Source: Cyanidioschyzon merolae
Taxonomy: Eukaryota
Assembly: GCA_000091205.1 (NCBI GenBank)
Contig: AP006484.2
DNA length: 64,000 nt
Direction: 5' to 3' (one strand)
This document shows, piece by piece, positions 3,028 through 53,832 of the stretch (within the stretch, counting starts at the first letter, position 1; every line of letters starts with the position of its first letter). Below the pieces are notes generated by a model. The model worked only from the letters and a program-made list of their open reading frames with translations, was not told where the DNA came from and did not search any database. Position numbers and translations under genes: made by a program.

Positions 3028-6000
3028 ATGGAGCCCGTTGAACACACAAACAGCAGCGAGGTATCCGCTGCCGCTAGAGCGACCCAAGATCACAACGACG
3101 AACGAGAGGGAGCACCAGTGAGCGGGGCGGTGGTTCCTGCGGAAGCTGATCCGCTATCCCATCTAGTGCAGGAACAGAGTGCCCTACAAGCGCTGCACAA
3201 ACGGGCGCCCCGAATCATGGACGACCCGGATTTCGAAGGGGAATCCCGTGACCCAGTGCTCCAGGTTGACAAAGATGACGAAGGTCCACGACCAGCAGCC
3301 GCTGAGCCTACAACGCTCCAGCGTGTCGCAACCACGTCGGACGAAAGCATACTGGGAAACGCTTCACCGGCCAGCGAGCGCGGACTTGTTTCAGACACAT
3401 TGCCACATGCAACAGATGCAGACGTGACCGATGAATGGGCTCGTCGCCGCAAACGTACGCGTTCGAGTCCAGAACTCGCCGAGGGTGATATCGAACTCCT
3501 GCGTGAAGCCGGTGTTGTGATTCCAGAGCGACAGTTGCATCCAGGAGGTCGTCGGTCTCGCCGGCGTCGACGACTTCGCCAGGCCGCAGACCTGGAGATG
3601 ACCTCTGAGAACGACGATGACGAAAACGACAAGATCGAGGCTTCCCCTGATACGACCTCCGTAGCACCGTTTGGCATGATTGGCGACAGAGACGAAGCCG
3701 ATAGAGCTGCAGGCGCTGTGGACGCTCAAAAGTTCACGTCTGTCGGAGAAAAGCAAGCGTCGTTGCCTGCTAGTCCTCATCAAGCAGCGAATGCCACGGT
3801 GGGTGCTTCAGGCCTGGGTGCCGGCATCGGCGGCACCGATGATCAGAATCTCGCAGATGAGGCGTCGATCGACCAAAACTCTGAAATAGAGGAAGAAGAA
3901 ATCGGCAGCGACGATGATGAGGATGATTTAGCCGACTTCATTGACTATGGTGATGGGGCAGCTGGGCAACGTCGCCGCCGCCTCGCCCGTGAACGAGCGA
4001 GAGCTGCTTTGCAAGCCTCACTCCGAGGCGGGCGCCTGTCCAGCGAACTGGATCCTTACGCTGCAGCACTGCTGCGAGAGCTCTTCGGTGATGCCGATTC
4101 ACTTGAGAACTACCGCGGAGAGCCGCTTCTCTATCACGATGATCCCGAGCAGATTCGCAAATGGCTCCAGAGAATCGGCGTCAATGATCCACGCGATATT
4201 GAGAACGTCTTGTCGCTGGAGTCGTGGGCAGTACCAGAGCCGTCGTCAGCGGAGGAGGATGCATCGACGGGTGCGGAAGCCTCCAAGAGCGCCGGACACG
4301 AGAGCCTCTCCGTCGAGCAGACAGAGCTGCTCGCGGAAATGTATGCAACGCCTCAGGATGATGCGATTCGTGCACTGGATTTGCCGGAGTACACCCAACT
4401 CTATCACTGCGGGCGGGATCAAGCGGGGAATCCACTCCCTCGCGAGCTCATGGACGAGAGCGATATTCGTTACGAGGCAGAGTGGATCGTCACCAACGGA
4501 CTCGTGGACCTGCTTCGGTCGAGTAGACAGGCGGCTCCAGAGTCATCGCTCGTGGATCAGGTCGCGCATTTGCTGCGCTTCCTGCATCTGGAGCACCTGG
4601 ACATCGCCTTTATCGCCATGTATCGACGAGATTACCTGGAACCCGATCTTCTGCCTCCGCTCGAGCGAGGCACTGGCGAGCAACAAGCTCCAGTGCTGGA
4701 GAGTCCGACACATTTCGTGGGCGACTGGACACGCCTCTGGCGAGTCCTCGACTGGGACCGATACTATTTCCAGTTCCTTCAGCAGAAGCGCCGCCTTATG
4801 GACGTTTATGAGGAACAGGGTGAAGAGGAGCTTTTGCAGCTGGCTACGGCAGCATTCCGCCGTGAGATGCTCCAGGATGTGGAAAAATACGCGCGACTGC
4901 GTCGGGAGCTAGCTCACGGGGACAAGAATGGATCGGCATCAGCGTCAGCAGGTCGTGAAGAGGCTGCAAGTCCCGAGTCGCTGCGTCAGGTGGCAGCAGA
5001 AACTCTGCTGGCGCCCAGCACCGACGCCTACCAGCGACAGGAGCACCGCACCGCAGCTGCAGCTGCGGCGGAAGCGGCAAACGGCAGCATCCACCCTGAA
5101 GTCGGCCTTGATTCCGAAGCTGCTGGTACCGTCTCCGACGACGCAATGGATCAGTTGCAGCAAGCAACCGCTGCAGCTGCTTTGCGACACGCGTCAGACG
5201 ACGAAGAGCACCGGGATGCGGCACCTGTGCACTCGACCGAGACCCTAACGCCAACAATTGGGAATGCCGAGGCCATGCAGCCGCGAGCACGCGCGAAGAA
5301 CAGCAACAGCAGTAGCAGCAACAGTCGTAGCGATTTGCAGCGTACCAACGCTGAGATAGCGACTTCAGCGGAACAACCGGGAACACTGCAGCCTCGACAG
5401 GTGCACCCGCAAGCCCCTGGTCGTCGCAGGGCTGGTCGCACTCCGTCGCGTCGTGATGCGCTTCATGTGGCGATATCCTGGGTTGTTGCACACCAGCTCG
5501 ATGTAGAGGCGCTCTATGGCATCAAGGCTGCCGATTTGGCCTCCAACGTGCTCTCGGGTGGCAGTCTCATCACCGAACCTGCTGATCATCCAAACAAGCC
5601 GTCGCTCGAAGAACTGCTTCGATCTACTGATGTTACCGAGAGCACTGCTGCCGTCGGTATCGAACGGTATCTGCGCTACGTTCGTCAGGTAGCTGGGGCG
5701 CTTTATGCGGCACACCCGCGCCTTCGGCACTTTACCCGGACGCGTCTGCGCGAAAAGGCGCACCTCACCGTGAAACCGAGTGCGCGTGCCCTCCAAGACC
5801 TCGATATACTGGATCCTTTGCGTCCGTACTGTTCAGTGGAAGCGCTACCGGTTGCAGCCCTGGACCCAGCAGAAATGGCTCGTTTCATTTACGCTGAACG
5901 CCTTGGCCTGGTGGAGCACATGGAATGCTCGCTAGCGGCGCCTGATGAAGCGGAGCTCGAGTCCATCCTGGAACGCGCGCTCCTCAGCGACAAGTTGTAC

Positions 6001-13950: not shown

Positions 13951-15600
13951 GGCAGGTGCCTGGAGGCACTGATCCTCGACACGGGAACTCGAAGCGAAGC
14001 ACGGGGGAACTGTTTTCCGTATTGTGGAAAGATCACCTTGTAGGCAGGTGCCTGGAGGCACTGATCCTCGACACGGGAACTCGAAGCGAAGCACGGGGAA
14101 ACTGTTTTCCGTATTGTGGAAAGATCACCTTATAGGCAGGTGCCTGGAGGCACTGATCCTCGACACGGGAACTCGAAGCGAAGCACGGGGGACCTATTTT
14201 CCGTATTGTGGAAAGATCACCTTGTAGGCAGGTGCCTGGAGGCACTGATCCACTACAGGGGAACTCGAAGCGAAGCACGGGGAAACTGTTTTCCGTATTG
14301 TGGAAAGATCACCTTGTAGGCAGGTGCCTGGAGGCACTGATCCTCGACACGGGAACTCGAAGCGAAGCACGGGGAAACTGTTTTCCGTATTGTGGAAAGA
14401 TCACCTTGTAGGCAGACTGGAGGCAATGATCCTCGACACGGGAACTCGAAGCGAAGCACGGGGAAACTGTTTTCCGTATTGTGGAAAGATCACCTTATAG
14501 GCAGGTGCCTGGAGGCACTGATCCTCGACACGGGAACTCGAAGCGAAGCACGGGGAAACTGTTTTCCGTATTGTGGAAAGATCACCTTGTAGGCAGGTGC
14601 CTGGAGGCACTGATCCTCGACACGGGAACTCGAAGCGAAGCACGGGGGAACTGTTTTCCGTATTGTGGAAAGATCACCTTGTAGGCAGGTGCCTGGAGGC
14701 ACTGATCCTCGACACGGGAACTCGAAGCGAAGCACGGGGAAACTGTTTTCCGTATTGTGGAAAGATCACCTTATAGGCAGGTGCCTGGAGGCACTGATCC
14801 TCGACACGGGAACTCGAAGCGAAGCACGGGGGACCTATTTTCCGTATTGTGGAAAGATCACCTTGTAGGCAGGTGCCTGGAGGCACTGATCCACTACAGG
14901 GGAACTCGAAGCGAAGCACGGGGAAACTGTTTTCCGTATTGTGGAAAGATCACCTTGTAGGCAGGTGCCTGGAGGCACTGATCCTCGACACGGGAACTCG
15001 AAGCGAAGCACGGGGGAACTGTTTTCCGTATTGTGGAAAGATCACCTTGTAGGCAGGTGCCTGGAGGCACTGATCCTCGACACGGGAACTCGAAGCGAAG
15101 CACGGGGAAACTGTTTTCCGTATTGTGGAAAGATCACCTTGTAGGCAGGTGCCTGGAGGCACTGATCCTCGACACGGGAACTCGAAGCGAAGCACGGGGA
15201 AACTGTTTTCCGTATTGTGGAAAGATCACCTTATAGGCAGGTGCCTGGAGGCACTGATCCTCGACAGGGGAACTCGAAGCGAAGCACGGGGGAACTGTTT
15301 TCCGTATTGTGGAAAGATCACCTTATAGGCAGGTGCCTGGAGGCACTGATCCTCGACACGGGAACTCGAAGCGAAGCACGAACGTGCAACAAGGTCGTTC
15401 TATCCTTATGGTAAGCGTTGCACGGGGGAACTGTTTTCCGTATTGTGGAAAGATCACCTTGTAGGCAGACTGGAGGCAATGATCCTCGACACGGGAACTC
15501 GAAGCGAGGCACGAACTTACAACAATTTTGTTTCCATCCTTATGGTAAGCGAAGCACAGGGAACTATTTTCCGTATTGTGGAAAGATCACCTGGTAGGCA
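13951..15600. repeat. Tandem satellite array of about 18 monomers of 92 bp. One 89-bp variant occurs; the distal monomers are irregular and carry about 45-bp insertions.
   Basis: Monomer: ggcaggtgcctggaggcactgatcctcgacacgggaactcgaagcgaagcacggggaaactgttttccgtattgtggaaagatcaccttgta. The phase is visible as the repeated 66-67 aa ORFs in the track at 14024, 14116, ..., 15217 (spacing 92, 92, 92, 92, 89, 92, ...). Monomers at 14024, 14116 and 14208 are identical to those at 14665, 14757 and 14849, which gives a 641-bp higher-order period. The array begins about 390 bp upstream of the NOG1 start codon. Confidence 0.95.
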
Positions 15601-16160
15601 GAAGGTTTCGTGAGCTAGACGAGTCTGCTAGGCTGGTGCTTCACTCTCTAGACAGTGGCAGGTGCTGTGGCGAGCTCTGAGCAGCTCGTCTGCAACGCAA
15701 TTCATTCTGGGACTAGGTGCAGTTAGGCTGAGTCTGGGCTTCGCACTGGTCGTGGTTGACTCCTAGCTTATCGATTCGTGCTGTCGCAGGCAGTCGGTCT
15801 GCCTGTACACTTTACATGCTCCCAGAATAGCTATGTACTCCGACTCCTTGTCGAATGGAGCAGGCATCGAGCCGAAACCCCGCCCCCCCACCAGTGGTGT
15901 GGCAAAGCCGTTCTGGCCCCGTGCTACGTACGCACTACCAGCACAGGCGCTACTGCGGGTGCTCATGGCAAGTACTCGGCGCACGATAGACCGTACGAAA
16001 CAACCAGTATATTCGAGAGGAACTAGGGGTCATGGAACCTGGAGGCCGGATGCTGCATGACGAACTTTTTTTCGAATGCTAATATCCATCCCACAGCCTA
16101 GGAACCATGGCCAATGTAAATGCTTTTTTCAGAGAGAAACACGCGCCCAATGGAGCGATC
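15560..16160. repeat. Dispersed repeat family A, copy 1, about 600 bp, directly following the satellite array
   Basis: Homologous over its whole length to 25801-26410. Examples: cgtctgcaacgcaattcattctgggactagg versus cgtctgcaacccagtttattctgggaatagg; tggcaaagccgttctggccccgtgc versus tagcaaagccgttctgtctccgtgc; aaccagtatattcgagagg versus aaccagtatatccgagcgg; atccatcccacagcctaggaaccatggccaatg versus atccatcccgctacgctggatccatggtccatgg. Confidence 0.85.
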
Positions 16161-18898
16161 ATTACGTTTCAAAATAGAAAACAATTCTTTCATGGGATTC
16201 AACCACGGAGCGCACGGAGGAATAAAAAGCAGCTCTGCCCTTGATAGATTCGGCAAAAGCTCGAACGCGAGTCGAATGGTGAAATACCACGTTGTCCTAT
16301 AGAGGGATGTCGCCAGACGCCAGCGGAAAAGTCTTCAATGATTCGGCAAAGTCGTTGGTGCCATCGTATGAATCCTCTGTACCAGCGAAACCGCGGCCGG
16401 CAAATGAATCCACTACCGCTAGGACAGATGATGTCGTCAGAGTTCTCTTCGAGATCCATCGCGCACACAACGGGCTTCCTGCTCTGCGAGTAGTCACATG
16501 CGCTCCAAAGGTTTCACTTAACGGAGTTCTCATCGACTGAAAAAACCACCCCAAGTCCCAGTGCTTCATACCGATCGCTGAGTTCCAGGAATTCTGTTGT
16601 TGCGATTTCAGTGGAAGATGACTGTGCATAAACTAGGACTTGTTTCTGCGACTTTATGCCAGTGTTTCAGGATCACACGAATAAGACGTTGAGAAGTATA
16701 GACGCACATGACGAATGATATCTTTGCTTTTGCTTTCCGTTAAGTGATCAAAGATTCGCCTTTGACGATGGACCGCAAGCACGCCTTGAGACGATCGGGT
16801 TTTCGCGCGGGGCATATAGTCGTGTTTCTTTCAGGGTTCCGCAGCCATCAGAGTATTGTGTTATGACTGACCTGATTCAGAAATGCAGTCCTTGTTGCGC
16901 TCTTCAGTAAAGCATATATCCTGCAGGCAATTCGACTACGATCTGTCCGGCACGTTGCATCGTGCTTTCGATCAGCTGCTATACCCCGCAGCGGAGGTTG
17001 CACCAACATTGAGTTGAGAGCCCATAAGCGAGCGCTGCGATACCTGGTGATTCATTGATGTGCGTCGGTGTAATTTTTTATCAAAAAGTGTGTGCCATAA
17101 AACCAGGTCATCTATGGGTGTGCGGGCATAGCTTCTGGCCTATCGCAACGCGCCGCTAGTCTTGGTGATGCACTGTTATGTGTTGCGATGTCCTTTCATT
17201 AGTCAGCATGCTTCGTGGAAACCAGGATGGCTGTGAAGAACTTCACCGTGTGCACGCCCTGATGTCTGGTATGTAGTGTAGCGGGTCGTTTGGCGCAGCC
17301 ACGTATGCACACGGAAACATCAGAACGCAGCTCCATACGATTACAGCTCCCGCTTTTTAGAATCAGCGTCGTGTCTGGCGATGCTGCACAGCGCTATGTG
17401 CACAAGGCGGGGCAGTCGCACAGTAACATCGAAAGGTTTGCCTTGTGCCTTGAAGGACTCCGCACGTTGTGTTGCGCTGTTGTAATGCGCGAGACTGGGG
17501 TCCGCGTGCGTCTGTTCTCGACGGATTCAAGGCAGCGCGCAAGCATGAGCGCAAGGCGTCTTCCGCGTCTTCCGCGTGCTTCTGGGAGACTGCGCGCGCT
17601 AGCCTGTTCGTATGGACGAGGCGGATCGTAGACCAAGCCGAACAGCAATGGCAGGTTTTTTCAGAGCTCTCCCGTACTCGGAATCGTGCGCCCTTCGCGT
17701 CTCAGAGGCGTATCTGGTCGATACGCAGCGCCTGCTAAACGGTATAAAACTCGGGTTCGAATCCGTCCATGATTATCGGATGCAGCGCACGCTGCACATC
17801 AGTGGCGTTTCGCGGAGCCCCAGAAGAGCGCCTAGCTGCGTTGCGCCGGGCGAACGATGCTAGATGTTTGCCGCCCAGCGCGTTATTGCCTAATCTGGGC
17901 ATCGTTGACCGCAAAAGGGTCATTCACCGGGGATACTTGCTACCTCGTGATATCTGTGATGACTTTTAGCAGATGCCCAGCGGAGCCAACATCTCGATAT
18001 AGCGATCTGGGCATTACAAATCACAAAAGCCTAAAGTTCGACATGCAGCAGACAACCCCCCGGGTCGATTAAGATAGCGAGCTCTCATACGAACGGGTTG
18101 TACGGCTGGATCAACTCGGGTTTCTCCAGATGAGCAAAACAGACTAGAGCGAAATGGCATGGGATCTGAGAGACATCCACTTGCATTCAAAGAGGGCACT
18201 TGTCTCGCATGATGGGCCGAGCCCTCGAATCATGCTTCCAAACCAAAAACGATATCTACTGAACGGCATCCAAATTTCGCAAGAGAGCTCGTTTCGCTAC
18301 GAAAAGTAGAGCAAAACACCTCTGTGGTCGGTGAAAAACGCCACCAGCTCGATATGGCTGTAAACTGATGCAATCCATGGCCTGCTGGAGAGACACCGCC
18401 CCGCTTCAATTCATCTGCCCGATACTGACTCGGAACGAGTGTTACGGAAGAAAATTCGATTGAGCCGAAGAAGCAACACCTCAAACAATCGCCAAAGAAG
18501 CTCCAGTGCGATCATTGGCGATGGAACAATGAAGATAAGAACATGACTGAGGCTCGCTAGTATCCTGTACCAACTTACACCACTTTTCTGGTGCAAAGAG
18601 ATCGATGCATCATGCTTGAGACGCAGCTACTGCTACCTACCATAGCTGCTGCCGCAGCGAGCACTGCACCCTCTTATGGGACCGCACCTAGTTCGACTCG
18701 AGCGCGATTCACTGAGCTACAGTGCCACTCGCATAGAGTCACCCACAGGTATTATCAAGTCTCTGCGCGTTCCGTTGATTAACTCGAAAACAACGCCACC
18801 TCAGCGGTCCCATTCACCAGGCTCCACTCGCAGCGGTTTATCCGAGTGTCGGCGCCAGCTCGCTGTACGCTGAAAGATCCTCGACGCGCACATACCGC

Positions 18899-19153: not shown

Positions 19154-22100
19154 AGGTAACGGTGGTAAACGTCCAGTGAAGCCGGAATGCGGCGGTTACC
19201 TCGTTGTGTGCAACTGCAGGCACCCAAGGCGACGTAAAGCTATTGAAGTGCATCGGCGGCGCCTGTGGTGCCGGCGCCCGGTGCGACGGCACCATGGATG
19301 CGCTGTCGGAGGTTTGTATGCTCGGGGTCACGGGGGATGCCCTGCTCTTTTCTCCAAAAGTATTGTGGATCGAGTAAAATGCCGGTGACTGGCCCGCAGC
19401 ACGTATGCAGCGCTTATACGGCTGCCAGGATAGAACTGCAACGAGTTCACTGACTCAACGAGGGCGAACACGCGCAAGTTTGCGTTATTTCATATCGTCA
19501 ACTGCACCAGAACTTGGGGGTTGGTTTTTCGGTCTCCTGTGTCGCGTCTCCAACTTTAAATACGCTGGTCTCTCGTTTCGCTCCGATTTCGTGAGCATCA
19601 GTCAGAGGATCGTGATAACAGGGCCAAATTCTCGTTCATAGGATTTCCGGTTGGCATAGACACGTGATAGGCGCAGGCGAAAGTTTCGATCGAATCTTCA
19701 TTGGCCATGCTCACCTATTTGTTTGCGGCATCGGCGTACGCTTTGCAGCGATCACACCCGACTATGGTCAGATGCTGCCTTGTCTCCAGCGTGCTTCCTC
19801 GTACGAGTACTGCCCTCCGGCGCTTGAACTGTTGCTGCATCGCTCTGTACACGCACTAGACGAGTACAGAAGACTCCCCGTCGATGCCCTCGACCGTTTT
19901 CGCGTCTGGTGCCGTACCCGAAGATCACGAGCTTCGTCAGTGGCGATGCCCCCGACGAGTACTCTGTATGCGTCATATGCGAGTGCGCACTGTTCCATGC
20001 CATTGAAGATTTGTGGATTGCGGTGTTCGCCATGGTGGTAGGGATTTGGAAGGAAAATGCAGGTTGGAGAACTTGCCGAGAACTATCGATCCGGTGGCGT
20101 TCTCTTCATGGAAACCTGTGAAGCTTTCCCCATTGGAAGCCGTCTCCGCTATGTGTAGAGTACGAATCCATGAACACTTTTCATGCAAACAGAAGACAGG
20201 GTAGCCTCTCTGGGAGCATATCCCCTGAATTGTATCGTGCTGCGGTTGAATCCGCCGATTCATCGACGGGCACACAGAGAGAAGCACCTGTCTTTCGACC
20301 CGCGTCGAGTATTTGACATGCGCTTGGGAAGAAGTCGTCAAGGAAGGTCGTCGAGATTCTCTCCTCATCGAAGCAGGGACGCGCATAGCTGTGCTCCTCG
20401 GTTACCTTGAAACAGAAAGATCGAGTTCTAGGAAACTGTATGAATTGAGCACGCGATATTTACGGAACGGAGAAGAGTCAAGGCTTGTTGTTCTGCATTG
20501 CGTTAAAATATCGGTTATTATAAGAGCCCTTGTACGAATCTGTCGCATGTCACTGTGATGATGGTGAGGTGACGAATTCTACTGGGACTTTGTCGAAGGG
20601 GCCGTCCCGGAGAAAACAACCGCCGAGAATCGTAAACCAAGGTATGCATCCAAGAACGCCAATTCCCGCACTTCGAAATTAGAGGCGCAATATCAACACA
20701 AGTTCGCAGAGAAAATCGACAGATAGAAACAGAACGAGCAGTTCAGTTCGCGATGGTAGTTCGACACCATTGTGGAGCGCAGCAGCGTATCGCGCTCGTT
20801 CGACTGTACCTGGACGAGTTCGGATAATGTGCAGTCGGGCACACGAACCAGCCCGGGCAGAACTTGGTCCAGGCTCACCTGGGATGCTGGAGTGTCCTGA
20901 GGCGCAACTGGGTATGCCCGTTTGCCGAAACGATTCATTGTCGTTCGTTGGCACTCGTTTAGAGAGACACCCAGCTGCTAGACATGTGTGCACCATGCGT
21001 CCTTGGTGCGTGCGAGCGACGAATATCCCAATGTCGTCGGATCCCGTGGATGACAACCACGCAGCATCGACTCGTTACTCGTTCGACGCACTAGTTGATG
21101 CCGCGGGCGTGCCGCCATCGCGTGCTATAGCGCGTCCTGCGCCAAAGGCGAATACCGCACCACGTGACTTGTCGGTCATGTTCTTTGCCACTTCATTGAT
21201 GAAGCCCGCAAATCTATGCATCTTGCCTCCATGCAACCGATACCGTTGGCGGCCCCAGCGAGGTCTCTCGGAACGCTGTCGAAAATCGTTCGCACGAGCC
21301 ATGTGGACGCTTCTGCTCTGTCCAGTGCTGGGCGCTACGGAATCGATGTTGGCACTGTCACGCCATTTGTTGGTATATACGCTGGCGTCCATAATGCTCG
21401 ACTACCCATAAACGCGAACAATGGAGAAATCAAGCCATATTACATATTCTGTCTGAGCATCAATTACCCTGTCATATGAAGGTTCTATCGAAAATTTCGA
21501 GAGGCATCTGCTCAGCTGGTAGCCCTGCGTCCGGATCGGCTACAGCAAGTCGTTTGACGAGGTGCATCGGGGCGAGAGCGGTGCCTCGCGAGACTTTGTC
21601 GCGTAAGGAGCTATGCGATATCTGTTGGCGTCCTGAATCTATCGATTAGCCGGAGACGAACTTGTTGGCTAGTGATCTATGCGCGTAAAAACCGCGTTTG
21701 CCGATAGTGACAATGCCGTACACTGGATAGAAGCTGGGAGCATGGGCTGGTACGAAGACCAGGTCCAGCCAAATTCCAGCTGTATGCTCCCTGTTTCTTG
21801 TTCAGTCATGGAACGCGACATTGCTAACGAGCAGGACAGACGAATTTGGTAAGGAGGAGCTTGGCAGAGAGACTCGATGAACGACGCGTCGTCGAGCAAT
21901 CCTAACCGTTCGGCGATTTGGGGCCGGCCTCACGCTTGACTCCCCGCTGGGCCTGAAGCCGTTGTCGCACGTGCTTGACTCCTCTTTACGGCCGGAGGTC
22001 TGCCCCTACTTCATCAACGATGCACAGACCTGCCAGTCTTCCCGAATCAAGACTCATCGAATGAGACGAACACCATCCAAACCTGTACTGACAAAAATTC

Positions 22101-22734
22101 GCTTCTCAGTACGAAATCAATCGTGTCTTGTGCAACGCATGGCGCTCTCCCATACAGGCGTGCTTTGCCTCAACGTCCGCCCGTGTCCCTTCGTCACCGT
22201 TCGTATCGAGGGCATAGAGACGTCTCATTCGACGGCATCGTGAACATTGTCTCTTACACATCATATTCAGTAGAATACCTTTCGAAGGAGATCGTCGTCC
22301 ATTTCGTCAGAGTTTGACCGGTTCTCCTCTAGGATGCGTGACGTTCAGAGCCAGCGTCGACGACGAGCAGCGTCATTCGACGTTGCTATGCCCGTTGAAA
22401 TACTGACAAGTAACGCCATTCTATATATGACAGCGATGACACCTTAGAGCCTTTCCAGGACCTCTGTCCAGACATCATCGCCACCACCATCATCAGATAT
22501 TCTATTCATAGAATACCTAGAAGAAAAAAAAACAGCGTGCTCCCGCAGGTATTCCAGCATGGACCGCTCCCGCACTGTAACGGACTCGCGGAGGGCGGCA
22601 GCGCGCGCACTTTGCGCGCCCCCGATGTGCTGTCCGTTTCGCCGCATCCGCCGGTGCCAGGCGCAGAGAAAAACGTTTCGCCTAGCGGAACTCGTACGTA
22701 GAAGCAGCGGAAGCGCGGCCCAGCGGCGAGCGTC

Positions 22735-24984: not shown

Positions 24985-25700
24985 CAGCCTGTCCGAGTAC
25001 ACTTCTAGCCTGAGAGAGGCTGCGTTACAAAGATAGATTGCCTCGGCTCCTCGGGTCTTGTTTCAGCACCGCTCATCTTCTGATATTCATGGCGGCGTTG
25101 AAGTCTCAGTTCACAAACTCGATGCGTTTCTTACCTCTGGTTGAACTCACCAATGCAAGGAGTCCTATAGCTCGTGCCATGTGTGCCCCTACAGCCTCGT
25201 CAGCGCCTCGCCGCGTAAACCCATTGCTCGCTTATCTCCTGTCTTGTTCTTCTTCTTCTTCTTCGTCGCTTGCGCTTCATCGCGTGACAGTCAGAGAGAA
25301 GGGGATTTTGTTCGTTCCTCCCGGGCAGCCGGCGATGGCGGCCCTCGAGGCTCCTCGGCTTCCTTGTCCACCAGTTTCGTTTTTAGTTTTGAAAACGAAC
25401 GCATTTTAAACGCATCTGCTATAAACCGCGAAGGAGTACTTGAATACACGAATCTGAAGGCCGGAACGCATTTGGGATCAAACATCATATTTTGCTCCGG
25501 CTTCAACGCAAATACAACTTGCACGGTAGAGCAGCGGGCTTGATGACGCCATGCTTTGCGCTTGTCGTGCATTGAGCACGTCACCGGCAACAGTGCACAT
25601 TCCGAATGCAACATCGCTAGTTTTCTGGCAAGTCAACGAGTAATCAGGATCGCGTTTCCCTTCAACAGCAACATGCGCGTCGTGTCTCATGCCCGACAGC
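24985..25700 (-). pseudogene. Deleted, degenerate second copy of the Fanzor/TnpB-like element. It keeps a C-terminal RuvC-III fragment with in-frame stops and an upstream leader homologue.
   Basis: Minus-strand translation of about 25060-25170 gives LALVSSTRGKKRIEFVN*DFNAAMNIRR*AVL. The intact copy reads LALVSTTNDGKKRMEFVNRDFNAAINIRRCAVL. The 3' flank at 24985-25040 matches 49830-49860 (tttttcgacccgcagcctgttactggtttc versus tttttcgaccggccacgcactactggttcc). The segment 25640-25700 matches 52540-52600 (cgtttcccttcaacagcaacatgcgcgtcgtgtctcat versus cgtttcccttcaacggcggcgcgcgcgtcgtgtctcat). Confidence 0.6.
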
Positions 25701-25800
25701 TATGGAGGTACGGATCTCGGCTGCGCTATAGAAAAAAGAACAGAAACGATCCACTCCGTGGCAACTAGATCAAAAGTTCTTTCGCCTCTACTATAAGCGT

Positions 25801-26410
25801 TGAAACGGGAACAGCTTTCCGTATTTTGCAAAGTTCACCTTCTCGGCGGAAAGTCCTGCAGGTCGGACAAGACTACTAGGCTAATACGCTGCACTCTACG
25901 GAGCGAAGGGTACTGTAGTGAGATCTGGGCAGCCCGTCTGCAACCCAGTTTATTCTGGGAATAGGGTCTGGTATGCTTCGTCTGGGCATCGTTTTGGTCG
26001 TAGTGCTCTTCTTGCATATCGCTTCGCGTTGTCGCGGGCAGCAAGTCTGTCTGCACAGCTTGCAAGCTCCCGGAATTACACTGAATCCCGATTCTGTGAC
26101 TAGTGCACCACACCTCGCGCAGACGCCATCAGTGGTATAGCAAAGCCGTTCTGTCTCCGTGCAGCATCCGCACAGGCGGTATAAGCGCTATTGTGAGTGC
26201 TCAGATCACGTTAGGTGCACAGTGGAACGTGCAAAATAACCAGTATATCCGAGCGGAAGTACGAATAATGGAACTTGGACTTGTTGGGCAGCCTGCTTGA
26301 CACTTTTTCGAACGCCAGCATCCATCCCGCTACGCTGGATCCATGGTCCATGGAAACGTTTTGGCAAAGAAAGAAATTCGCCCACCGGCGGCATTTGCCG
26401 TAGCTGGAGC
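25801..26410. repeat. Dispersed repeat family A, copy 2. Its first about 60 bp are one diverged monomer of the 92-bp satellite.
   Basis: Copy 2 reads acgggaacagctttccgtattttgcaaagttcacctt; the satellite monomer reads acgggggaactgttttccgtattgtggaaagatcacctt. The rest aligns to 15620-16160 as described for copy 1. Confidence 0.85.
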
Positions 26411-48392: not shown

Positions 48393-49724
48393 ATGAAGCA
48401 GACTGAGCCCATGGAAACTGAGACGCAGTCAGAAACGCCTACAGCACCAAGTTCACGTGAGTCCGTTTCTGAGCAGAGCGGGGCGGTGTCGGCCGAGTCA
48501 CGGAAGGTGTTGCCTCGGATCGCAAGTGCGGGCAATGAGCTCTATCGCGCAGCGGCGCCTGGTGTGCCATCCGCGGTGACTGCTTCGTATTCTGACTTTA
48601 TTGCACAACAGCAGCATTATCAGCAGCAACAGAGAAGTTTAAGCGGCAGTGGTGGCAGCGGTCTTCGTCATAGCTTTTCGTGGGGTTCGTTCGTAGCGGC
48701 ACCACCGTTCGCCGTCGGGTATGGAAGCGGTATCGGAGGCAGCGTCCCTAACCTGAGCTCTGGGGCTGCCCCGTTGGGTGCCGCAGAGATTCTCGCACAA
48801 AACGCATACCTCCACTCGGAACTAAACCGGGCGCAGTCGGAAATACAGGCACTACGGAATCGTATTTACGAGCTGGAGATGCACCTGGGGGTTGCCAGCT
48901 GTGGCGTCCGTTCCCCGACTGAAAGAGCATCAACACCTCCAGCTCCGGCGAGCGCTGGTCAGGGCAAGGCGCCAGGCAGCAGCACTGCGGTCGCTTTGGG
49001 CTCTGGGCCAGTGCTGACTGCGCCGCCGCCCTTGCACGTAGCAACTGCAGTTCCGTTTGGAGGATCAGCTGCGATACCGGCTTCTGGTGTTGGCGCGCTG
49101 TACTCTAACAATCGAGTGATGCCCTGCATGTCAATGCCGCATAGCTCGAGTCCACTGAATTTGCCAGCCTGGCGACCAGATCGGTTTTCGCCGTCTCCAC
49201 CACCCGCCCAGTTTGGCAGCGGCCTCAGCACCAGCGCTACTACTGCATCTGGGCGCGCGGCATCTGTGCCAAACCAACCGTTTTCCTCTGCTGGACCTGG
49301 TAGTAGTCATGCGCGGCCGGGGCTCGCCGCAAAGAGCATGCTCGCCCGACACGATTCTCTAGGTTCCATCAGCAAAGACAGCCATAACAGCCACGCGGAT
49401 GAATACGGAACTGGGGGTTACAGCAGCAGCAGTGGAAGCAGTCTTCGTATTGGAGAACGTAGACGATCTCAATCATCCTCGAAACGACGTGGAAGAGCCT
49501 CATCAGTGGGGTCGGCACCGGAGACCGGAACCCCGCAGCCACGGTACTGGACTCAGGAGGAACACCAACGTTTCCTGGAAGCTCTGGAAAAATTCGGAAC
49601 CCGGAACGTGAGAGCGATCAGCGAGTATGTTGGTACTCGAAACGCAACGCAGGTTCGCACCCATGCACAGAAGTACTTCTTGCGGCTCACTAGAGAGGCA
49701 GAGAGGAAAACCTCGCGACCATGA
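48393..49724 (+). CDS. MYB-like transcription factor (single SANT/MYB repeat, SHAQKYF class) with a long Ser/Ala/Gly-rich N-terminal region
   Basis: The C-terminus has RYWTQEEHQRFLEALEKFGTRNVRAISEYVGTRNATQVRTHAQKYFLRL, which is a canonical SHAQKYF-type MYB repeat. Confidence 0.7.
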   Translation: MKQTEPMETETQSETPTAPSSRESVSEQSGAVSAESRKVLPRIASAGNELYRAAAPGVPSAVTASYSDFIAQQQHYQQQQRSLSGSGGSGLRHSFSWGSFVAAPPFAVGYGSGIGGSVPNLSSGAAPLGAAEILAQNAYLHSELNRAQSEIQALRNRIYELEMHLGVASCGVRSPTERASTPPAPASAGQGKAPGSSTAVALGSGPVLTAPPPLHVATAVPFGGSAAIPASGVGALYSNNRVMPCMSMPHSSSPLNLPAWRPDRFSPSPPPAQFGSGLSTSATTASGRAASVPNQPFSSAGPGSSHARPGLAAKSMLARHDSLGSISKDSHNSHADEYGTGGYSSSSGSSLRIGERRRSQSSSKRRGRASSVGSAPETGTPQPRYWTQEEHQRFLEALEKFGTRNVRAISEYVGTRNATQVRTHAQKYFLRLTREAERKTSRP

Positions 49725-49918
49725 CACCACCGCCTTTCGAAAGTCGAACGACGTCGCCGACGGTATAGCGTAGTGGCGGCAAACGGGCCTTAGACAAATC
49801 GTCTCCAACTGATGTGCAGACGCCTCCCCGTCTTTTTCGACCGGCCACGCACTACTGGTTCCCACTTTTTCTCATATAGTTCGATTTTGAGGGGTTGTCC
49901 TACAAAGGACCTTGTTGT

Positions 49919-50791
49919 CTACTCTGGAGGTCTTTTCTCCAGCACCGCACATCTCCTTATATTGATAGCGGCGTTAAAGTCTCTGTTAACAAATTCCATA
50001 CGTTTCTTGCCATCATTGGTTGTACTTACTAGTGCAAGTAGTCCTCGAACTTTTGCCATCCTTTCCATTTGCTCGTCTGTCAGCGGTCCGTACTTTGCGA
50101 TTTCCTCAGGGCTCCACTGGCACTTTTCCATCTCGACCCTCTGAAGTCTACACCCCAGTTCATGGTGCGTATACGATGTTCGGAACTCATCTACGGATAT
50201 TGTAACGAAACGTCGTGCACACTCTTTGTACACCCTCGTCGTTGGAGAAGACGTATTCTCTTTCTTGGGCGCCCAGCGCCCTGCCCCATACGCTACTACG
50301 AGCCTCTGACTCTCATCCTCCTTCAAGGCGACCAACTGATTGAAAAAGTTGGCAAACGCCCGCTGTTTCCCGCCGTATAGATTCATTCGCAAACGAGCCC
50401 ACCGGGGCTTGGTATCCTCCTCCCACAGCGCATCCCAATGAGCAACACGAATTTCCATGAATTTCCGAAAAGCTTCAAAGTCCGCTCCTCGGCTCGTCAC
50501 CTCGCTCAAAGCTCCCAGGTGATCCTTCATTCCTGAATTCCAAGTCTCGATTTTCTTCCTCGCATTCATCATTCCCAATTCTCGATAGTATCTCGCTCTC
50601 GAGAACCCCAAAAGACGCATGTCTTTCTGACGCAAGTTACCGTCAATGCCATCTTCCGCACGCTTTGGTGCTGCGATGGTTATGATATTCGTGTTCCCAG
50701 GGTCCGCGCCAACGACAAAGTCGTTATCCTGCACTTTCTGTGTCCGAGGGCCCGCCTTCTTGTTTTCTACATGCTTCGCCGCGCCAACCAT
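49919..50791 (-). CDS. RuvC-nuclease segment of a TnpB/Fanzor-like protein (C-terminal 290 aa)
   Basis: RuvC-I: VVGADPGNTNIITIAAP (compare GIDxG). The pre-zinc-finger motif is SVDEFRTSYTHHELGC (compare VDPRYTSQTC in TnpB). RuvC-III: FVNRDFNAAINIRR (compare DxNAAxNI). A CTGGAG-7nt-CTCCAG hairpin at 49924-49942 overlaps the last codons. The stop codon is TAG at 49919-49921. Confidence 0.75.
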   Translation of the reverse strand: MVGAAKHVENKKAGPRTQKVQDNDFVVGADPGNTNIITIAAPKRAEDGIDGNLRQKDMRLLGFSRARYYRELGMMNARKKIETWNSGMKDHLGALSEVTSRGADFEAFRKFMEIRVAHWDALWEEDTKPRWARLRMNLYGGKQRAFANFFNQLVALKEDESQRLVVAYGAGRWAPKKENTSSPTTRVYKECARRFVTISVDEFRTSYTHHELGCRLQRVEMEKCQWSPEEIAKYGPLTDEQMERMAKVRGLLALVSTTNDGKKRMEFVNRDFNAAINIRRCAVLEKRPPE

Positions 50792-51160
50792 AAAGGCGTT
50801 ATCCTACACCTCCTGCATCACAGGATCCGCCTCCTTCTCGTGTTCACCCTTGGTCACGTTAACGACAAAGTCGTTATCTTGCACTATCTGCTTCTCAGAA
50901 CGCGCCTTGTTGTTTTCTTCATGCTCAGACAGGCCAGCGACAAGGTTGTCATCCTCCACCTCCTGCATCGCAGGACCAGCCTCCTCCTTTTCTTCATCCT
51001 TCGTCACGTCAACGACAAGGTCGTTATCCGCACCTCCTGCGTCGCAGGATCCTCCTCTTTGTTTTCTTCATCCTTCGCCACGTCAAGGACGAGGTCATTA
51101 TCCTCCACTTCCTATGTCGCAGGACCAGCCTCCTCCTTTTCTTCATCCTTTGTCACGGGC
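50700..51160 (-). repeat. Internal tandem repeat inside the Fanzor-like gene: about 6 units of 75-78 bp encoding an acidic 25-26 aa module ([25 protein letters not shown]...)
   Basis: Repeats are visible on both strands. The plus-strand ORFs 50646-51248 and 50771-51205 show reiterated DKVVILHLL and TTKSLSCT strings. The minus-strand frames give [13 protein letters not shown](M/T)QEVEDDNLV units. Confidence 0.85.
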
Positions 51161-53832
51161 GCAGCCGAGGGCGCAACTGGCCGATCTCCCTTCAACGGCC
51201 GATAGTGTATACACAAGGCTACTCCATCGGTTTCAATCATCCCGCTGAACAACTTCTGCTTGCTCACTCTCAGAGGTTTGAAATCGAAGATGCTCTTCCT
51301 GTACGTCTCCCGGTTTTTACCAGAGAATTCCTCTGTGCTAACATTGGACTCTGGACTGATCTCCTTCATGATGCCATGAAGGACGCCGGAGTTGATAGTC
51401 ACAAAATGTGACTCGATCTTGCACATTGGAACCACGTTGAAGCGCTTACCCATTAGGACAGACTTCCGTCTCTCCCACTCTTCATTTGTCTCTTCACTCA
51501 GCTTCATCTCCGCTTCGCGTTCGAGTTCACGGTCCAAAAACACAAGATACCGCAGGGAGAGGCGATAGTATTTTTCCTTATCTATTTTCAACTCTGATAC
51601 CTTTTCTGTTGGATTCACCAGCCCCAAGACTGCACGGTGCTCTTGTATAGCCGCACGGGTTACAGAAGCTTCATTCGTGCTCCCTTTTGACGTCTACTTG
51701 TCGACAAATTCGACCTCACCTTGATGCTTGCGATCTCTCGTGATGCCATTGATCATCGCCCATATTCCTTTGCGAGAGATACCTGGGTAGAGTGCAACCG
51801 CGGCGCGTACTATGAAACATTCGAGGATCACTGTCAAATGGTTCTTCAGATTCGTGAGGTACTTCATCGCTCCGTATGTGTAAATACCCTGGCCACCCTT
51901 GTATCGATTACCCTCGAAGCGGAATTCCGCGAAGTTTTCGTGGAGGCCGTCCACTAGCACATTTTCCTTCCGCGCTTCCGCTGTACCAAAGATGAGGTAA
52001 CGAAAAAAGGTCTTTTCGAAAAACTCGTCCGGAATCTCGACCGTTTCCATGTGCGTCACGTCGCGATACATCTCCCTCGCTAAATGCATCAGTCCTGACG
52101 ACGCCTCTATAATACTCTTGGAGTCCGAATCGACACGGTTTCTGATAGCGTCTCGCAAATTTTCTCTGCAGGGATCCTTGACATGTCCAAGAAGAGAGGT
52201 ATTCACAACCATCTCGTTGTACAGTCGTCTTTCTTGCAGCCTTCGACGCAGGACCTTCCCCTTTTGGGTCTTCTTCTCTTCCTTTTCTCCTGGACTCGGC
52301 ACTGTTTTTTGTTTTTTCTGGCAGCCTGCGACCCTGGGCCTCCAGGATCGTCGACTTCCTTTTCATAACTTTTCTTTTCTAGTTTTTTTAAATGAACCCT
52401 CTGTGAACGCTTCTGTTATATACTGCGAAAAATCAATCGAATATTTTCACTTGAGGGTTGAAACACAATCGAACTAAAAACTATACTTGCCTATGAAATT
52501 AACGAAAATACAACTTTTACACGAGAGCTAGACGCTAAAGATCAAGATCACGTTTCCCTTCAACGGCGGCGCGCGCGTCGTGTCTCATATCTGCCCCAAC
52601 TCTCAGGTACGCTCATCGAGCGCGATGCATGCGCTGCGCGAGACGCCTCATCGATCGATGAAGGACACGTGTCCGACACCCCGCCTTGGCATATGCGTGT
52701 TTGTATCGCGCTGCAGCTGAAGTAAAGTATCGTAGATTGGAAACTCACGTAGAGTAATCTCTTGCTATAGGCTCTGTCGCTGGTGCCGAAGCTACTGCCC
52801 ATCGCAGTACCGCCTTGACATACATGGAGATGTAGGGGCCTGGCACGATACCCCTCGACGCTTCTATCAAAAGCGTAGCGTTCTCTGCGGCTTACGCTTG
52901 TCTGGATAAGGTACGCATCACTCTAGCCTTGAAGAGTTTCGTTAGTTTTATTGATCGTAAACAAACAAGGGACGGTAGGATTCCTGAACACGGACATACG
53001 TTTAATTCCTATGCTTGTTATGCATGCCGCACGGACGCTGGAATAAGGACCTGACCTGAATTTTGCTTCTATCCCGCGTCATGGGCTAGAACCGATGATA
53101 GTTCAAGTCATTTCCATGCTATCGTCGTTGTCCAAGTTATGATGCCCGCTACGTCCCCCGGATCCGGTGGTCTCGGCAGAGGCATACCACATATGTGGCG
53201 TCCATATCTGCCACGACGTTTGAGCCTTGCATCTCGCCTGGCACGATCGAGGCATCCGGCAATAGCACATATTGTGTTCTGATCTACTCTATAAGATTGG
53301 TTTCAAGAGCCTAACCCGTACATCGAGCCCGGAAGCGACATAGCCAACAACAAATGCCTTTGAAAAGAAAAACTTTTTCGCCGGCCGTGCAGAGTAGTGG
53401 CGAGTGACCCGCCCCAGACATGACGTGTCCAACTGACGTGCAGACGCTTCCAAAATAACGTAGCGCCGGAGGAAATTCCTTTACACCTCCTCTACGTTAT
53501 TCGTCAGTGAGCTGCTGCGACGTGTCTTCACGATAATTGTGATCTCTGAACTCAGCATCGCGGAGCGCTGACCGACCAGTACTGACGAGATTGTTGCTCG
53601 GAAAACAGCGAGTTTTGCCTAGTTTCTGAGAAATACTTTCAGCGCTTGTGCGGGTTGTGCTCAAAGTTGGACAGTCCAGGGGAGATTGAGGTCGGCATCA
53701 GCACCAATGGACGGGCGATCACACGTGCAGCAACGCAAAAGATGTTTTCGACTGGATATGCACACCTACGCGAAAGACTCTAGCCGGTGACGTGATCGAC
53801 AGCTTTGCACCGGAGAAAATCTAACCGAGAAA

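Follow-up and report, generated by a model that had tools for sequence, protein, structure and literature searches.

The Fanzor1 family CMe-1A of Cyanidioschyzon merolae has been described as a multi-copy, non-autonomous element of ~3 kb, whose copies are ~80% identical to the consensus, carry no TIRs and no clear TSD, and show a mosaic 5′ region, the 5′ 635 bp of the consensus being identical to TE-N2_CMe (Bao & Jurka 2013, PMC3627910). The same study (Mob DNA 4:12) gave the Fanzor1 C-terminal motif as D-X(125,275)-[TS][TS]-X-X-[zinc finger]-X(5,50)-RD, counted the PUl Mariner elements among the Tc1/mariner-type elements that carry Fanzor1, and left the TSDs and the class of CMe-1A undetermined. 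In the case of Spizellomyces punctatus, 134 ghost Spu-1 loci, with an omega-RNA region of ~75 nt and no ORF, work with SpuFz1; they retain both inverted repeats and a body of ~550 nt, and they are well conserved and functional (Saito 2023, PMC10432273). The right end and omega-RNA of IS200/IS605 TnpB elements, like the reRNA of the SfAV Fanzor1 (Yoon 2023, doi 10.1101/2023.08.09.552727), occupy the stretch between the end of the nuclease ORF on its 3′ side and the element boundary.

In this study, we have analysed a Fanzor locus within a 64-kb stretch of C. merolae DNA (the window, to which the coordinates in Table 1 and in the text refer), where two direct repeats lie on either side of the nuclease gene. 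The original prediction had offered three explanations for these repeats, namely element termini, a duplicated omega-RNA-like module, or two insertions of a short repeat; the second comes nearest to what was found and the other two did not hold. Our results make it very probable that the repeats are two copies of the 3′-terminal ~97 nt of CMe-1A, one being the right end of the element that resides at the locus and the other an orphan from a second element, and that they do not form a paired architecture.

Table 1. Features of the Fanzor1 locus and its surroundings (window coordinates)
Feature	Position	Strand	Basis and details
Terminal hairpin type 1, CGTCGTTCGA-CTT-TCGAAAGGCG	49731..49758	-	Alignment and fold statistics
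Repeat copy 1, the 3′-terminal module of the resident CMe-1A	49731..49827	-	BLAST of the published consensus (3073-3169)
Position of the true stop codon of the family, TAA here, within copy 1	49790..49792	-	Consensus ORF 906-3110
Fanzor1 (CMe-1) pseudogene, at least 2 frameshifts and at least 3 in-frame stops	49793..52366	-	blastx against the consensus protein
Premature TAG (TTG in the consensus)	49919..49921	-	Alignment with the family
75-bp tandem repeat, 6 copies, within the ORF	50710..51157	-	Unit equals consensus 2117-2196, single in the 2013 consensus
Hairpin GCGCTC-GAT-GAGCG where the conserved core begins on its 5′ side	52612..52624	-	Fold statistics
Head B, repeated sequence	52625..53355	-	Common to L006, L010, L027, L043 and L063
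Repeat copy 2, orphan CMe-1A 3′ module	53356..53451	-	Consensus 3073-3168, 80% identity
Imperfect hairpin, flanking DNA	53454..53501		Arms 53454-53475 and 53480-53501, 22 nt, 77% complementary

The resident element and its Fanzor1 pseudogene

The resident element, a pseudogenised CMe-1A copy, occupies window 49731-52624 on the minus strand. In a BLAST comparison with the 3169-bp consensus, positions 648-2196 align to window 52624-51078 (84%) and positions 2117-3169 to 50783-49731 (88%), the nucleotide homology running through the Fanzor core to the 3′ terminus and ending at consensus base 3169. The window copy thus resembles the published family in its protein motifs, in a core with 84-88% nucleotide identity, and in the same terminus, ...GAAAGGCG.

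The assignment of the ORF to Fanzor, made in the original prediction, is borne out by the published CMe-1 motifs, by profile matches to Fanzor1 structures and by the fold. The motifs DEFRTSYTHHELGC and NRDFNAAINI match the published CMe-1 protein exactly, and in the ORF at 49919-50791 the Fanzor1 C-terminal motif reads GADPG ... DEFRTSYTHHELGC..KC ... NRDFNAAINI, with spacings inside the published ranges and with zinc-finger ligands that are HH..C..C and not C4. A profile of diverse homologues (A4), the sole profile to give PDB matches, recovered PpFz1 from Parasitella (9cf0, E = 8.9e-19), SpuFz1 from Spizellomyces (8gkh, 1e-11) and GtFz1 from Guillardia (9cer, 2e-6) among the PDB sequences, and the catalytic RuvC motifs line up in these matches. 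A single-sequence search and a profile of close homologues gave no match in the PDB, and nothing informative was obtained when the ORFs of the window were searched against Pfam, NCBIfam and PHROGs or, with phmmer, against the PDB sequences. The AF2 model of a homologue (P0008) has a pLDDT of 70.8; a model from the shallow alignment A3, with a pLDDT of 37.8, was discarded. In a Foldseek search of the PDB with the P0008 model, SpuFz1 was the best match (E = 5.6e-11), followed by PpFz1, GtFz1, Cas12 variants and the ISDra2 TnpB (8h1j), which places the protein in the Fanzor/TnpB/Cas12 fold (WED-RuvC-TNB). The nuclease locus is therefore confirmed as Fanzor1 by its profile match to solved structures and by its fold.

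The position of the proximal repeat relative to this gene depends on which stop codon is considered. Copy 1 had been said to follow the nuclease stop at a distance of about 90 bp, and this is correct for the resident copy only, where that stop is the premature TAG. In intact members of the family the ORF extends into the repeat, and its stop codon falls at the equivalent of window 49790-49792, where the window frame reads ...GRRLHISWRRFV*.

The window copy also departs from the published element: it is a pseudogene, its coding region contains the 75-bp unit six times, and it carries head B in place of the TE-N2_CMe head. The 5′ 635 bp identical to TE-N2_CMe were not found at the window locus, and because consensus 1-647 is absent, with head B standing there instead, the window copy is a core-sharing variant and not a canonical CMe-1A. 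Head B is found only beside cores, and its 5′ extents are nested among loci; no protein handle was found for extending L043 upstream of its head B. CMe-1A copies carry heads of at least four types, and the different heads join the core at the hairpin that marks its 5′ start (consensus ~648).

Relationship of the two repeat copies

Repeat finding over the 64-kb window delimits the pair to 49732-49827 and 53356-53451, that is, 96 nt each at a spacing of 3624. The copies are 71% identical without gaps over the 96 nt and 65% identical in the comparison of modules; they share a 24-mer, TCCAACTGAYGTGCAGACGCYTCC, which is absent elsewhere in the window (0.00 expected, 100 shuffles), and the window holds only these two copies of the 96-mer. 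The direct repeats flanking the Fanzor locus are thus real and far beyond chance, as had been proposed, and they are longer than the ~60 bp first claimed. The module that they represent consists of the last 35 coding nucleotides, the stop codon and a 59-nt non-coding tail with the terminal hairpin. Copy 1 forms the last 97 nt inside the resident element, including the 12 final codons of the intact ORF, and copy 2 sits 730 bp beyond the conserved 5′ boundary of that element, which argues against reading the two as paired element termini.

A census of the module in ~790 kb of related sequence (80 loci and the window) returned 92 matches, and 89 of these adjoin, one module each, the 3′ coding region of a Fanzor gene; the loci were fetched via the Fanzor protein, so that orphans far from Fanzor would be missed in this count. 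The three orphan modules correspond to one locus, represented by the window, by L003, a twin at 99%, and by the homologous locus L063, and no second module was seen upstream at the loci for which 6 kb of 5′ flank was available. Fanzor copies devoid of the repeat pair had been named in the original prediction as the observation that would speak against its proposal, and the singly attached modules are such copies.

These data bear directly on the possibility that a single composite element spans 49731-53451 and has the two repeats as its direct termini, LTR-like or other. The two copies do have the same orientation on either side of the nuclease gene, and the same arrangement exists at L063. 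However, L063 is a homologous locus, with flank matches to window 57031, and not an independent case; a module at a similar distance upstream was found in none of the other copies, and the 2013 consensus lacks a repeat of this kind. LTR-like repeats would stand at both ends of every complete copy, at a conserved distance, and would be each other's closest relatives, and neither was observed: copies 1 and 2 are 65% identical to each other as against 77-80% to dozens of modules elsewhere, each ranks its partner far down the list of modules (55th and 41st), and their terminal hairpins belong to different subtypes. A composite element is, in our judgement, extremely unlikely.

The same comparisons weigh on the idea that copy 2 was copied in place from copy 1, by local duplication or by gene conversion during repair. 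The proximity and shared orientation of the copies would fit such an event, but copy 2 shares 80% identity with the consensus and up to 80% with modules elsewhere, as against 65% with copy 1, it bears the other terminal-hairpin subtype, the intervening head B has not been duplicated, and the low mutual ranks given above point the same way; we regard in-place copying as very unlikely. As for two insertions of an independent short repeat, a common MITE- or SINE-like ~96-mer unrelated to Fanzor, nothing speaks for it beyond the existence of the repeat itself. With two copies only in 64 kb, with 89 of the 92 modules contiguous with Fanzor coding sequence and with the first 35 nt of the repeat being the end of the ORF, its probability is negligible. 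The two repeats are CMe-1A modules of independent origin, and no other copy of the family shows such a pair.

Copy 2 has lost its stop codon (TGG), its terminal hairpin, of a type 2-like form, is degraded, and no Fanzor sequence lies upstream of it. Its junctions are like the normal junctions of the family, with a T-run before and TTTG after. Between the window and L063, copy 2 is 69% identical with an 8-nt deletion, the hairpin beside it is 79% identical, a neutral level, the non-coding flank is 70-79% identical, and the SDR coding sequence is 89% identical; copy 2 and the adjacent hairpin are evolving no slower than neutral flank. The copies 2 of the window and of L063 also differ in terminal-hairpin subtype, a mismatch that simple shared descent does not predict and that may reflect gene conversion or repeated insertion.

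In this regard, copy 2 could be thought of as a functional stand-alone omega-RNA locus, a ghost providing a second guide for Fanzor proteins made elsewhere, for which the Spizellomyces punctatus loci offer a precedent (PMC10432273). As in ghost Spu-1, it is an omega-RNA-sized piece of a Fanzor1 3′ end without a Fanzor ORF; the 97-nt module lies within the known range of Fanzor1 scaffolds (75-120 nt), and a T-run precedes copy 2 as it does the 5′ ends of the family. Unlike ghost Spu-1 loci, copy 2 comprises the 3′ 97 nt only and has kept a single element end, it represents one event among 92 modules, and it is unconstrained, its identity to L063 being at or below the neutral level. Its terminal hairpin is decayed, as noted, and it lacks the 5′ arm, conserved in the family, of the long stem predicted below. 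A functional ghost locus is thus very unlikely, and copy 2 is most likely inert, because the predicted scaffold has no upstream half here and what is left is decaying.

We therefore favour the reading in which the two repeats are the right ends of separate CMe-1A elements. Copy 1 is the right end belonging to the resident pseudogenised element, and copy 2 is the orphan right end of a second, independently derived element of another subfamily. The orphan would have been left either by an insertion severely truncated on its 5′ side or by an upstream tandem copy that has lost all its other parts. Copy 2 adjoins the resident element because CMe-1A elements cluster; tandem, inverted and nested copies occur at many loci.

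Terminal hairpins and flanks of the family

The alignment of further copies, which had been suggested in the original prediction, fixes the 3′ terminus of the family: in ~70 independent copies the homology stops within a few nucleotides of window 49725-49731. At this boundary the module tail closes with a 10-bp hairpin. Over 50 copies, the last ~30 nt fold with a mean z of -2.85, as against -0.12 for an internal control, with at least 6 bp in 76%, and the hairpin is retained in two different registers among copies. For the hairpin at the 5′ start of the core, the mean z is -1.86 (31 copies), and hairpins are thus present at both element ends.

These two structures, one within the final 30 nt of the module, the other at the core 5′ start, are the real terminal hairpins of the family. 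The hairpin that had been noted next to the distal repeat does exist, but it is locus-unique flanking DNA and not part of the element. It folds weakly better than chance (-10.8 kcal/mol as DNA, z = -1.84, with 10 of 200 shuffles folding equally well), it has no second occurrence in the 790 kb, and it is missing from the family consensus; its right arm provides the T-run GTTATTTT that abuts copy 2.

Hairpin-forming ends are a likeness of CMe-1A to IS200/IS605 elements and the SfAV Fanzor1. Hairpins at both ends also occur in Helitron2-type elements, and for this reason they are not diagnostic for IS200/IS605, whose autonomous members carry a Y1 (HUH) TnpA and insert 3′ of a fixed short motif without a TSD. 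Helitron2-like ends combine hairpins at both ends with insertion between T and T, and the flanks of CMe-1A are T-rich on the 5′ side and T/G-rich on the 3′ side: TTTT is found at most 10 nt from 11 of 20 family 5′ ends, compared with a background of 2.3%, and the T-rich 5′ flanks share no fixed motif. Such ends are therefore compatible with the flanks of CMe-1A, although Bao & Jurka did not assign the family to this type. No TSD was detected in copies having both consensus ends, and no Y1 or serine TnpA came to notice in passing at any locus.

An empty site was sought through orthologues of the neighbouring Myb gene. The Cyanidiococcus and C. merolae-like loci recovered in this way lack CMe-1A and diverge directly after Myb; they retain the AdoHcyase-amylase-Myb order and give no nucleotide-level boundary for the element. 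The Myb protein itself shares only 58-62% identity with its Cyanidiococcus and C. merolae-like counterparts.

Candidate omega-RNA and possible ancestry of CMe-1A

The module takes up the position of the right end and omega-RNA in IS200/IS605 TnpB elements and of the reRNA in the SfAV Fanzor1, between the 3′ end of the nuclease ORF and the element boundary. By analogy with all characterised TnpB and Fanzor systems, it most likely contains the right end together with the 3′ portion of an omega-RNA scaffold, whose guide would be expected to come from the flank. The earlier placement of copy 1 on the right-end and omega-RNA side is thus correct as to the 3′ end of the element, and plausible, through this analogy, as to the RNA. 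One difference is that the stop codon of CMe-1A is followed by a tail of only 59 nt, and therefore any scaffold must overlap the coding sequence.

A 12-bp long-range stem is predicted, both arms of which are conserved at 0.9 or above, third codon positions included. The predicted fold has several stems and shows weak column-wise covariation, with 11 pairs changing on both sides versus 7.3 in shuffles. These structures were computed on gap-trimmed columns; RNAalifold on the ragged alignment gave none, and the automatic A5 consensus contained 3 pairs. An Rfam scan of 49500-53700 returned no match, and a covariance model (R2) found no significant match in the 3′ regions of distant Fanzor1 relatives. 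Conservation of the non-coding tail (0.83) is barely higher than that of third codon positions (0.79-0.82), and third-codon conservation over the last 12 codons falls in the top 6% of windows, a value that is suggestive of an overlapping RNA constraint and not significant.

One may go further and regard the 97-nt module as the smallest omega-RNA unit of a Fanzor1 from thermoacidophilic red algae, with orphans, inserted after a T-run in the manner of full elements, serving as ghost guides that retarget the nuclease in trans, but we consider this very unlikely. In a related and broader reading, of similarly low probability, CMe-1A would spread anchored at its 3′ hairpin while carrying variable lengths of 5′ flank, which would account for the nested series of head B as well as for the multiplicity of 5′ heads.

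Among distant relatives of the CMe-1 protein, the nearest are metagenomic and share 36-50% identity with it; their genes follow immediately after that of a DDE_3 transposase, and at a red-algal locus (L047) a degenerate DDE_3 gene is found 82 nt upstream of CMe-1A sequence. The elements of the DDE_3-linked relatives end in ...CATGAGTA, directly before TA, ~190 nt past the stop codon. In contrast, the ends of CMe-1A have neither TIRs nor TA flanks, and no DDE_3 gene is present within 49731-53451. The linkage in distant relatives, together with the remnant at L047, suggests Tc1/mariner ancestry and not membership.

What appeared to be a direct terminal repeat around a Fanzor gene is, in the reading that we favour, a full copy together with the orphan end of a family already published in 2013, and the locus is ordinary transposon debris, not a new kind of terminal repeat. 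The terminal hairpin, the core 5′ hairpin, the composition of the flanks and the orphan 3′ end are not described in the 2013 paper on CMe-1A (PMC3627910). The region of consensus ~3040-3169, that is, the ~130 nt up to the 3′ terminus, now offers a concrete candidate omega-RNA for the Fanzor1 of thermoacidophilic algae, and the linkage to DDE_3 genes hints at the origin of CMe-1A, a family whose class has been listed as unknown.

The repeat pair and the CMe-1A family

The direct repeat predicted on either side of the Fanzor gene is real and longer than the roughly 60 bp originally claimed: two stretches of 96 nt, copy 1 and copy 2, share 71% ungapped identity and lie 3624 bp apart. The conserved 24-mer core of the repeat has no other site in the 64-kb window, where none is expected by chance. 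The repeat module is the extreme end of the 3169-bp consensus of CMe-1A (supplementary files of PMC3627910), a Cyanidioschyzon merolae Fanzor1 transposon family described as having ~150 copies of ~3 kb, ~80% identical to the consensus, with no TIRs, TSDs undetermined and 5' 635 bp common to another TE, TE-N2_CMe (Bao & Jurka 2013, PMC3627910). Because the consensus ORF ends at 3108-3110 and the module starts at 3073, each repeat comprises 35 nt of terminal coding sequence (...GRRLHVSWRRFV), followed by the stop codon and a 59-nt 3' tail. The stop codon that had been placed ~90 bp from copy 1 turned out to be a premature TAG in place of a consensus TTG; in the reading frame of the family, the window copy extends as far as a TAA within copy 1 (49790-49792). 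Window homology in ~70 other copies stops within a few nt of 49725-49731, a shared limit by which copy 1 is identified, at the level of sequence, as the resident element's own right end. This limit directly adjoins the stop codon (49722-49724) of a convergent SHAQKYF-class Myb gene.

The nuclease gene between the repeats, on the minus strand with its ATG at 52366, is broken, with at least two frameshifts and three in-frame stops by blastx against the family consensus. It contains a 75-bp coding unit, found once in the 2013 consensus and encoding an acidic 25-aa unit, whose copy number differs widely between loci. Motifs of the window protein occur verbatim in published CMe-1 (supplementary files of PMC3627910). 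Single-sequence searches of Pfam, NCBIfam, PHROGs and PDB sequences with the window ORFs returned nothing, and a protein search gave 293 relatives, all metagenomic, at 70-86% identity; a metagenome scan found 380 encoded copies, from which 80 loci were fetched. An exhaustive profile search (1359 relatives) provided a diverse alignment for PDB comparison, which aligned, catalytic motifs included, with Fanzor1 proteins of known structure from Parasitella (E = 9e-19), Spizellomyces (1e-11) and Guillardia (2e-6), and the same three structures were the best matches of an AF2 model (pLDDT 70.8). Profile and predicted fold thus confirm the putative nuclease as a Fanzor1, independently of the published family.

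Features of the repeat region and other transposon-derived sequences in the window and in fetched loci
Feature	Sequence	Coordinates	Strand	Remarks
Copy 1	window	49732-49827	-	
Copy 2	window	53356-53451	-	53451-53356 aligns to consensus 3073-3168, 80% identity
Element, 5' block	window	52624-51078	-	consensus 648-2196, 84%
Element, 3' block	window	50783-49731	-	consensus 2117-3169, 88%
75-bp coding unit	window	50710-51157		6 copies
Head B	window	52625-~53340		variable sequence 5' of the core
Second CMe-1A copy	window	25064-26366	-	heavily deleted; TE-N2 head; consensus 4-730, 742-969, 2855-2960; no 3' module
Tandem array	window	13951-15380 and 15568-16131		92-bp unit, 15.6 copies, 96% matches
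DDE_3 remnant	window	16146-16986	-	degenerate; abuts TE-N2 copy
DDE_3 remnant	window	21658-22166	-	degenerate
DDE_3 remnant	L047	3647-4580		degenerate; CMe-1A sequence 82 nt further on
DDE_3 remnants	L019, L025/L069, L033, L060/L061			degenerate

Origin and fate of the second copy

Searched over the 80 loci and the window (~790 kb in total), a profile of the module had 92 matches, and in this sample, chosen via the Fanzor protein and thus confined to modules in the vicinity of a Fanzor gene, 89 of the 92 directly continue the 3' coding region of a Fanzor gene. The remaining three, the orphans, occur in the window, in its 99%-identical twin L003 and in L063, a locus whose match to the window is unbroken between 57031 and 50933 (80% identity; SDR coding sequence 89%, non-coding DNA 70-79%). 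As L063 is a homologous locus and L003 a twin, the three orphans represent one event, and no second module was seen upstream in loci with 6 kb of upstream flank. Pairing is therefore not a feature of the element, whose modules are attached singly to the Fanzor gene; the observation in the original prediction stands, while its interpretation is upheld only in part. A new terminal architecture was rejected: the feature combines a full but dead member of a known Fanzor1 transposon family, whose right end is copy 1, with an orphan 3' end from that family, copy 2.

The two copies are only 65% identical, each being 77-80% identical to modules elsewhere; the partner copy ranks only 55th and 41st, and the two differ in the subtype of their terminal hairpin. 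By these comparisons, the copies come from two different elements. The 5' junction of copy 2 (...GTTATTTT|GGAAGCG) and its 3' flank (TTTGTTG...) both resemble ordinary family junctions, which makes an insertion that was very short or 5'-truncated slightly likelier than the random loss of an upstream tandem copy. The terminal hairpin of the orphan module is type 2-like in the window (53356-53385) and type 1-like at the homologous position of L063 (3640-3672), a mismatch that is unexpected under simple shared descent and would be accounted for by gene conversion from other copies or by insertions recurring at this site. The separate hairpin reported beside copy 2 is present, with 22-nt arms that are 77% complementary, and its stability is marginally above that of shuffled sequence (z = -1.84; 10/200 shuffles equally stable); it is 79% identical between the window and L063 and has no other occurrence in the searched sequence.

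In the case of SpuFz1, ORF-less ghost loci supply working omega-RNAs (Saito et al. 2023, PMC10432273). Whereas those loci are numerous, conserved and keep both ends, copy 2 has only the 3' end, derives from a single event and shows no constraint, so that it is regarded as an inert relic. Between the window and L063 it is 69% identical, no better than neutral flank, with an 8-nt deletion; its stop codon is lost, its terminal hairpin is degraded, and of the long stem that the module region is predicted to form, the 5' arm is missing.

L063 1-7058 aligns to window 57031-49731 (~80% identity) through a common SDR gene (with one frameshift in L063), the hairpin, copy 2, head B and the element. Homology ends exactly at the element's 3' end, where a different gene (1493-aa ORF) follows: here a rearrangement breakpoint coincides with the boundary of the transposon. 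The Myb protein encoded beside the window element shares 62% identity with one from Cyanidiococcus yangmingshanensis and 58% with a C. merolae-like one; as the three proteins have 433-443 aa, the insertion left the gene untruncated. The order AdoHcyase-amylase-Myb is conserved in the three genomes and broken immediately after Myb in all three (window and L081-L083 compared), with no CMe-1A after Myb in the other two. By this comparison the host is a cyanidiophycean red alga separate from both.

Element ends and the putative omega-RNA

In all characterised TnpB and Fanzor systems, the omega-RNA spans the gene's 3' end to the element boundary and the guide comes from the flank; known scaffolds measure ~75 nt in SpuFz1 (Saito et al. 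2023, PMC10432273) and ~120 nt in SfAV Fz1 (Yoon et al. 2023). The last ~30 nt of CMe-1A form a hairpin in most copies (mean z -2.85 vs -0.12 for an internal control), with two registers retained. With columns trimmed, the fold predicted by RNAalifold has several stems and is closed by one of 12 bp, coding ~3043-3056 with tail ~3124-3134, both arms of which are at least 0.9 conserved, third codon positions included. Since column-wise covariation in this fold is weak, the 3' tail overall is hardly more conserved than synonymous sites, and neither an Rfam match nor, with a covariance model of the module, a counterpart in distant Fanzor1 relatives was found, we infer from position and analogy that the module would be the right end and omega-RNA site. 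The RNA would run from the gene's 3' end through the module to the element boundary, with its guide from the flank.

At the other end, a small hairpin marks the beginning of the conserved core, at consensus ~648 (window ~52624). At least four groups of unrelated heads precede the core among the copies, one being the published TE-N2 head; the window carries head B, common to five other loci and seen only beside cores. Copy 2 adjoins its far end, ~730 bp outside the core. In other loci the 5' extents of head B are nested (53066, 53191, 53254, at least 53305, complete), which would fit 5' truncation, or a co-mobilised variable 5' flank from one source locus. Across L006, L010, L027, L043, L041/L080 and L075/L079, its core junction is constant and its 5' extents range from 35 bp to >680 bp.

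TTTT lies within 10 nt of 11/20 family 5' ends (background 2.3%), and T accounts for 65% of the 8 positions preceding the consensus 5' end, against 23% (TE-N2/CMe-1A copies in 20 loci, e.g. L049:3811, L050:4453, L061:4786). In 32 copies, the 10 positions following ...GGCG are rich in T and G and nearly devoid of A, and the 3' flanks begin with TT in 24-30. Such flanks may reflect a target preference or degenerate outermost bases of the element itself; neither the T-rich 5' nor the T/G-rich 3' flanks appear in the 2013 description. CMe-1A copies frequently lie within a few kb of one another, in tandem, head-to-head or nested arrangement (e.g. L031, L044, L048, L051, L073, L076, L079, L043, L014/L015), and internal-deletion derivatives with both ends kept are common (e.g. 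consensus ~500 to 1075, ~420 to 1399).

Other remnants and the DDE_3 link

The 92-bp unit of the tandem array overlaps consensus ~523-563 of TE-N2_CMe/CMe-1A and the array lies immediately beside a minus-strand TE-N2-like copy; it appears to be a satellite-like amplification of a TE segment. The nearest distant CMe-1 relatives (36-50% identity) are immediately preceded by a gene for a DDE_3 (Tc1/mariner/IS630-type) transposase, and distant Fanzor1 relatives (L085-L091) show this DDE_3-Fanzor layout with TA-flanked ends. The elements that carry these relatives end ...CATGAGTA|TA ~190 nt past the Fanzor stop codon, and one of these relatives, L089, has an inverted counterpart of the terminal sequence at its 5' end. 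In L047, the CMe-1A sequence that follows the DDE_3 remnant begins 37 nt before the Fanzor ATG. In CMe-1A itself neither TIRs nor TA flanks are seen. All together, this suggests that CMe-1A descended from a Tc1/mariner-type carrier and is not a member of that class, and the DDE_3 linkage may be a clue to the ancestry of the family, its class being given as unknown.
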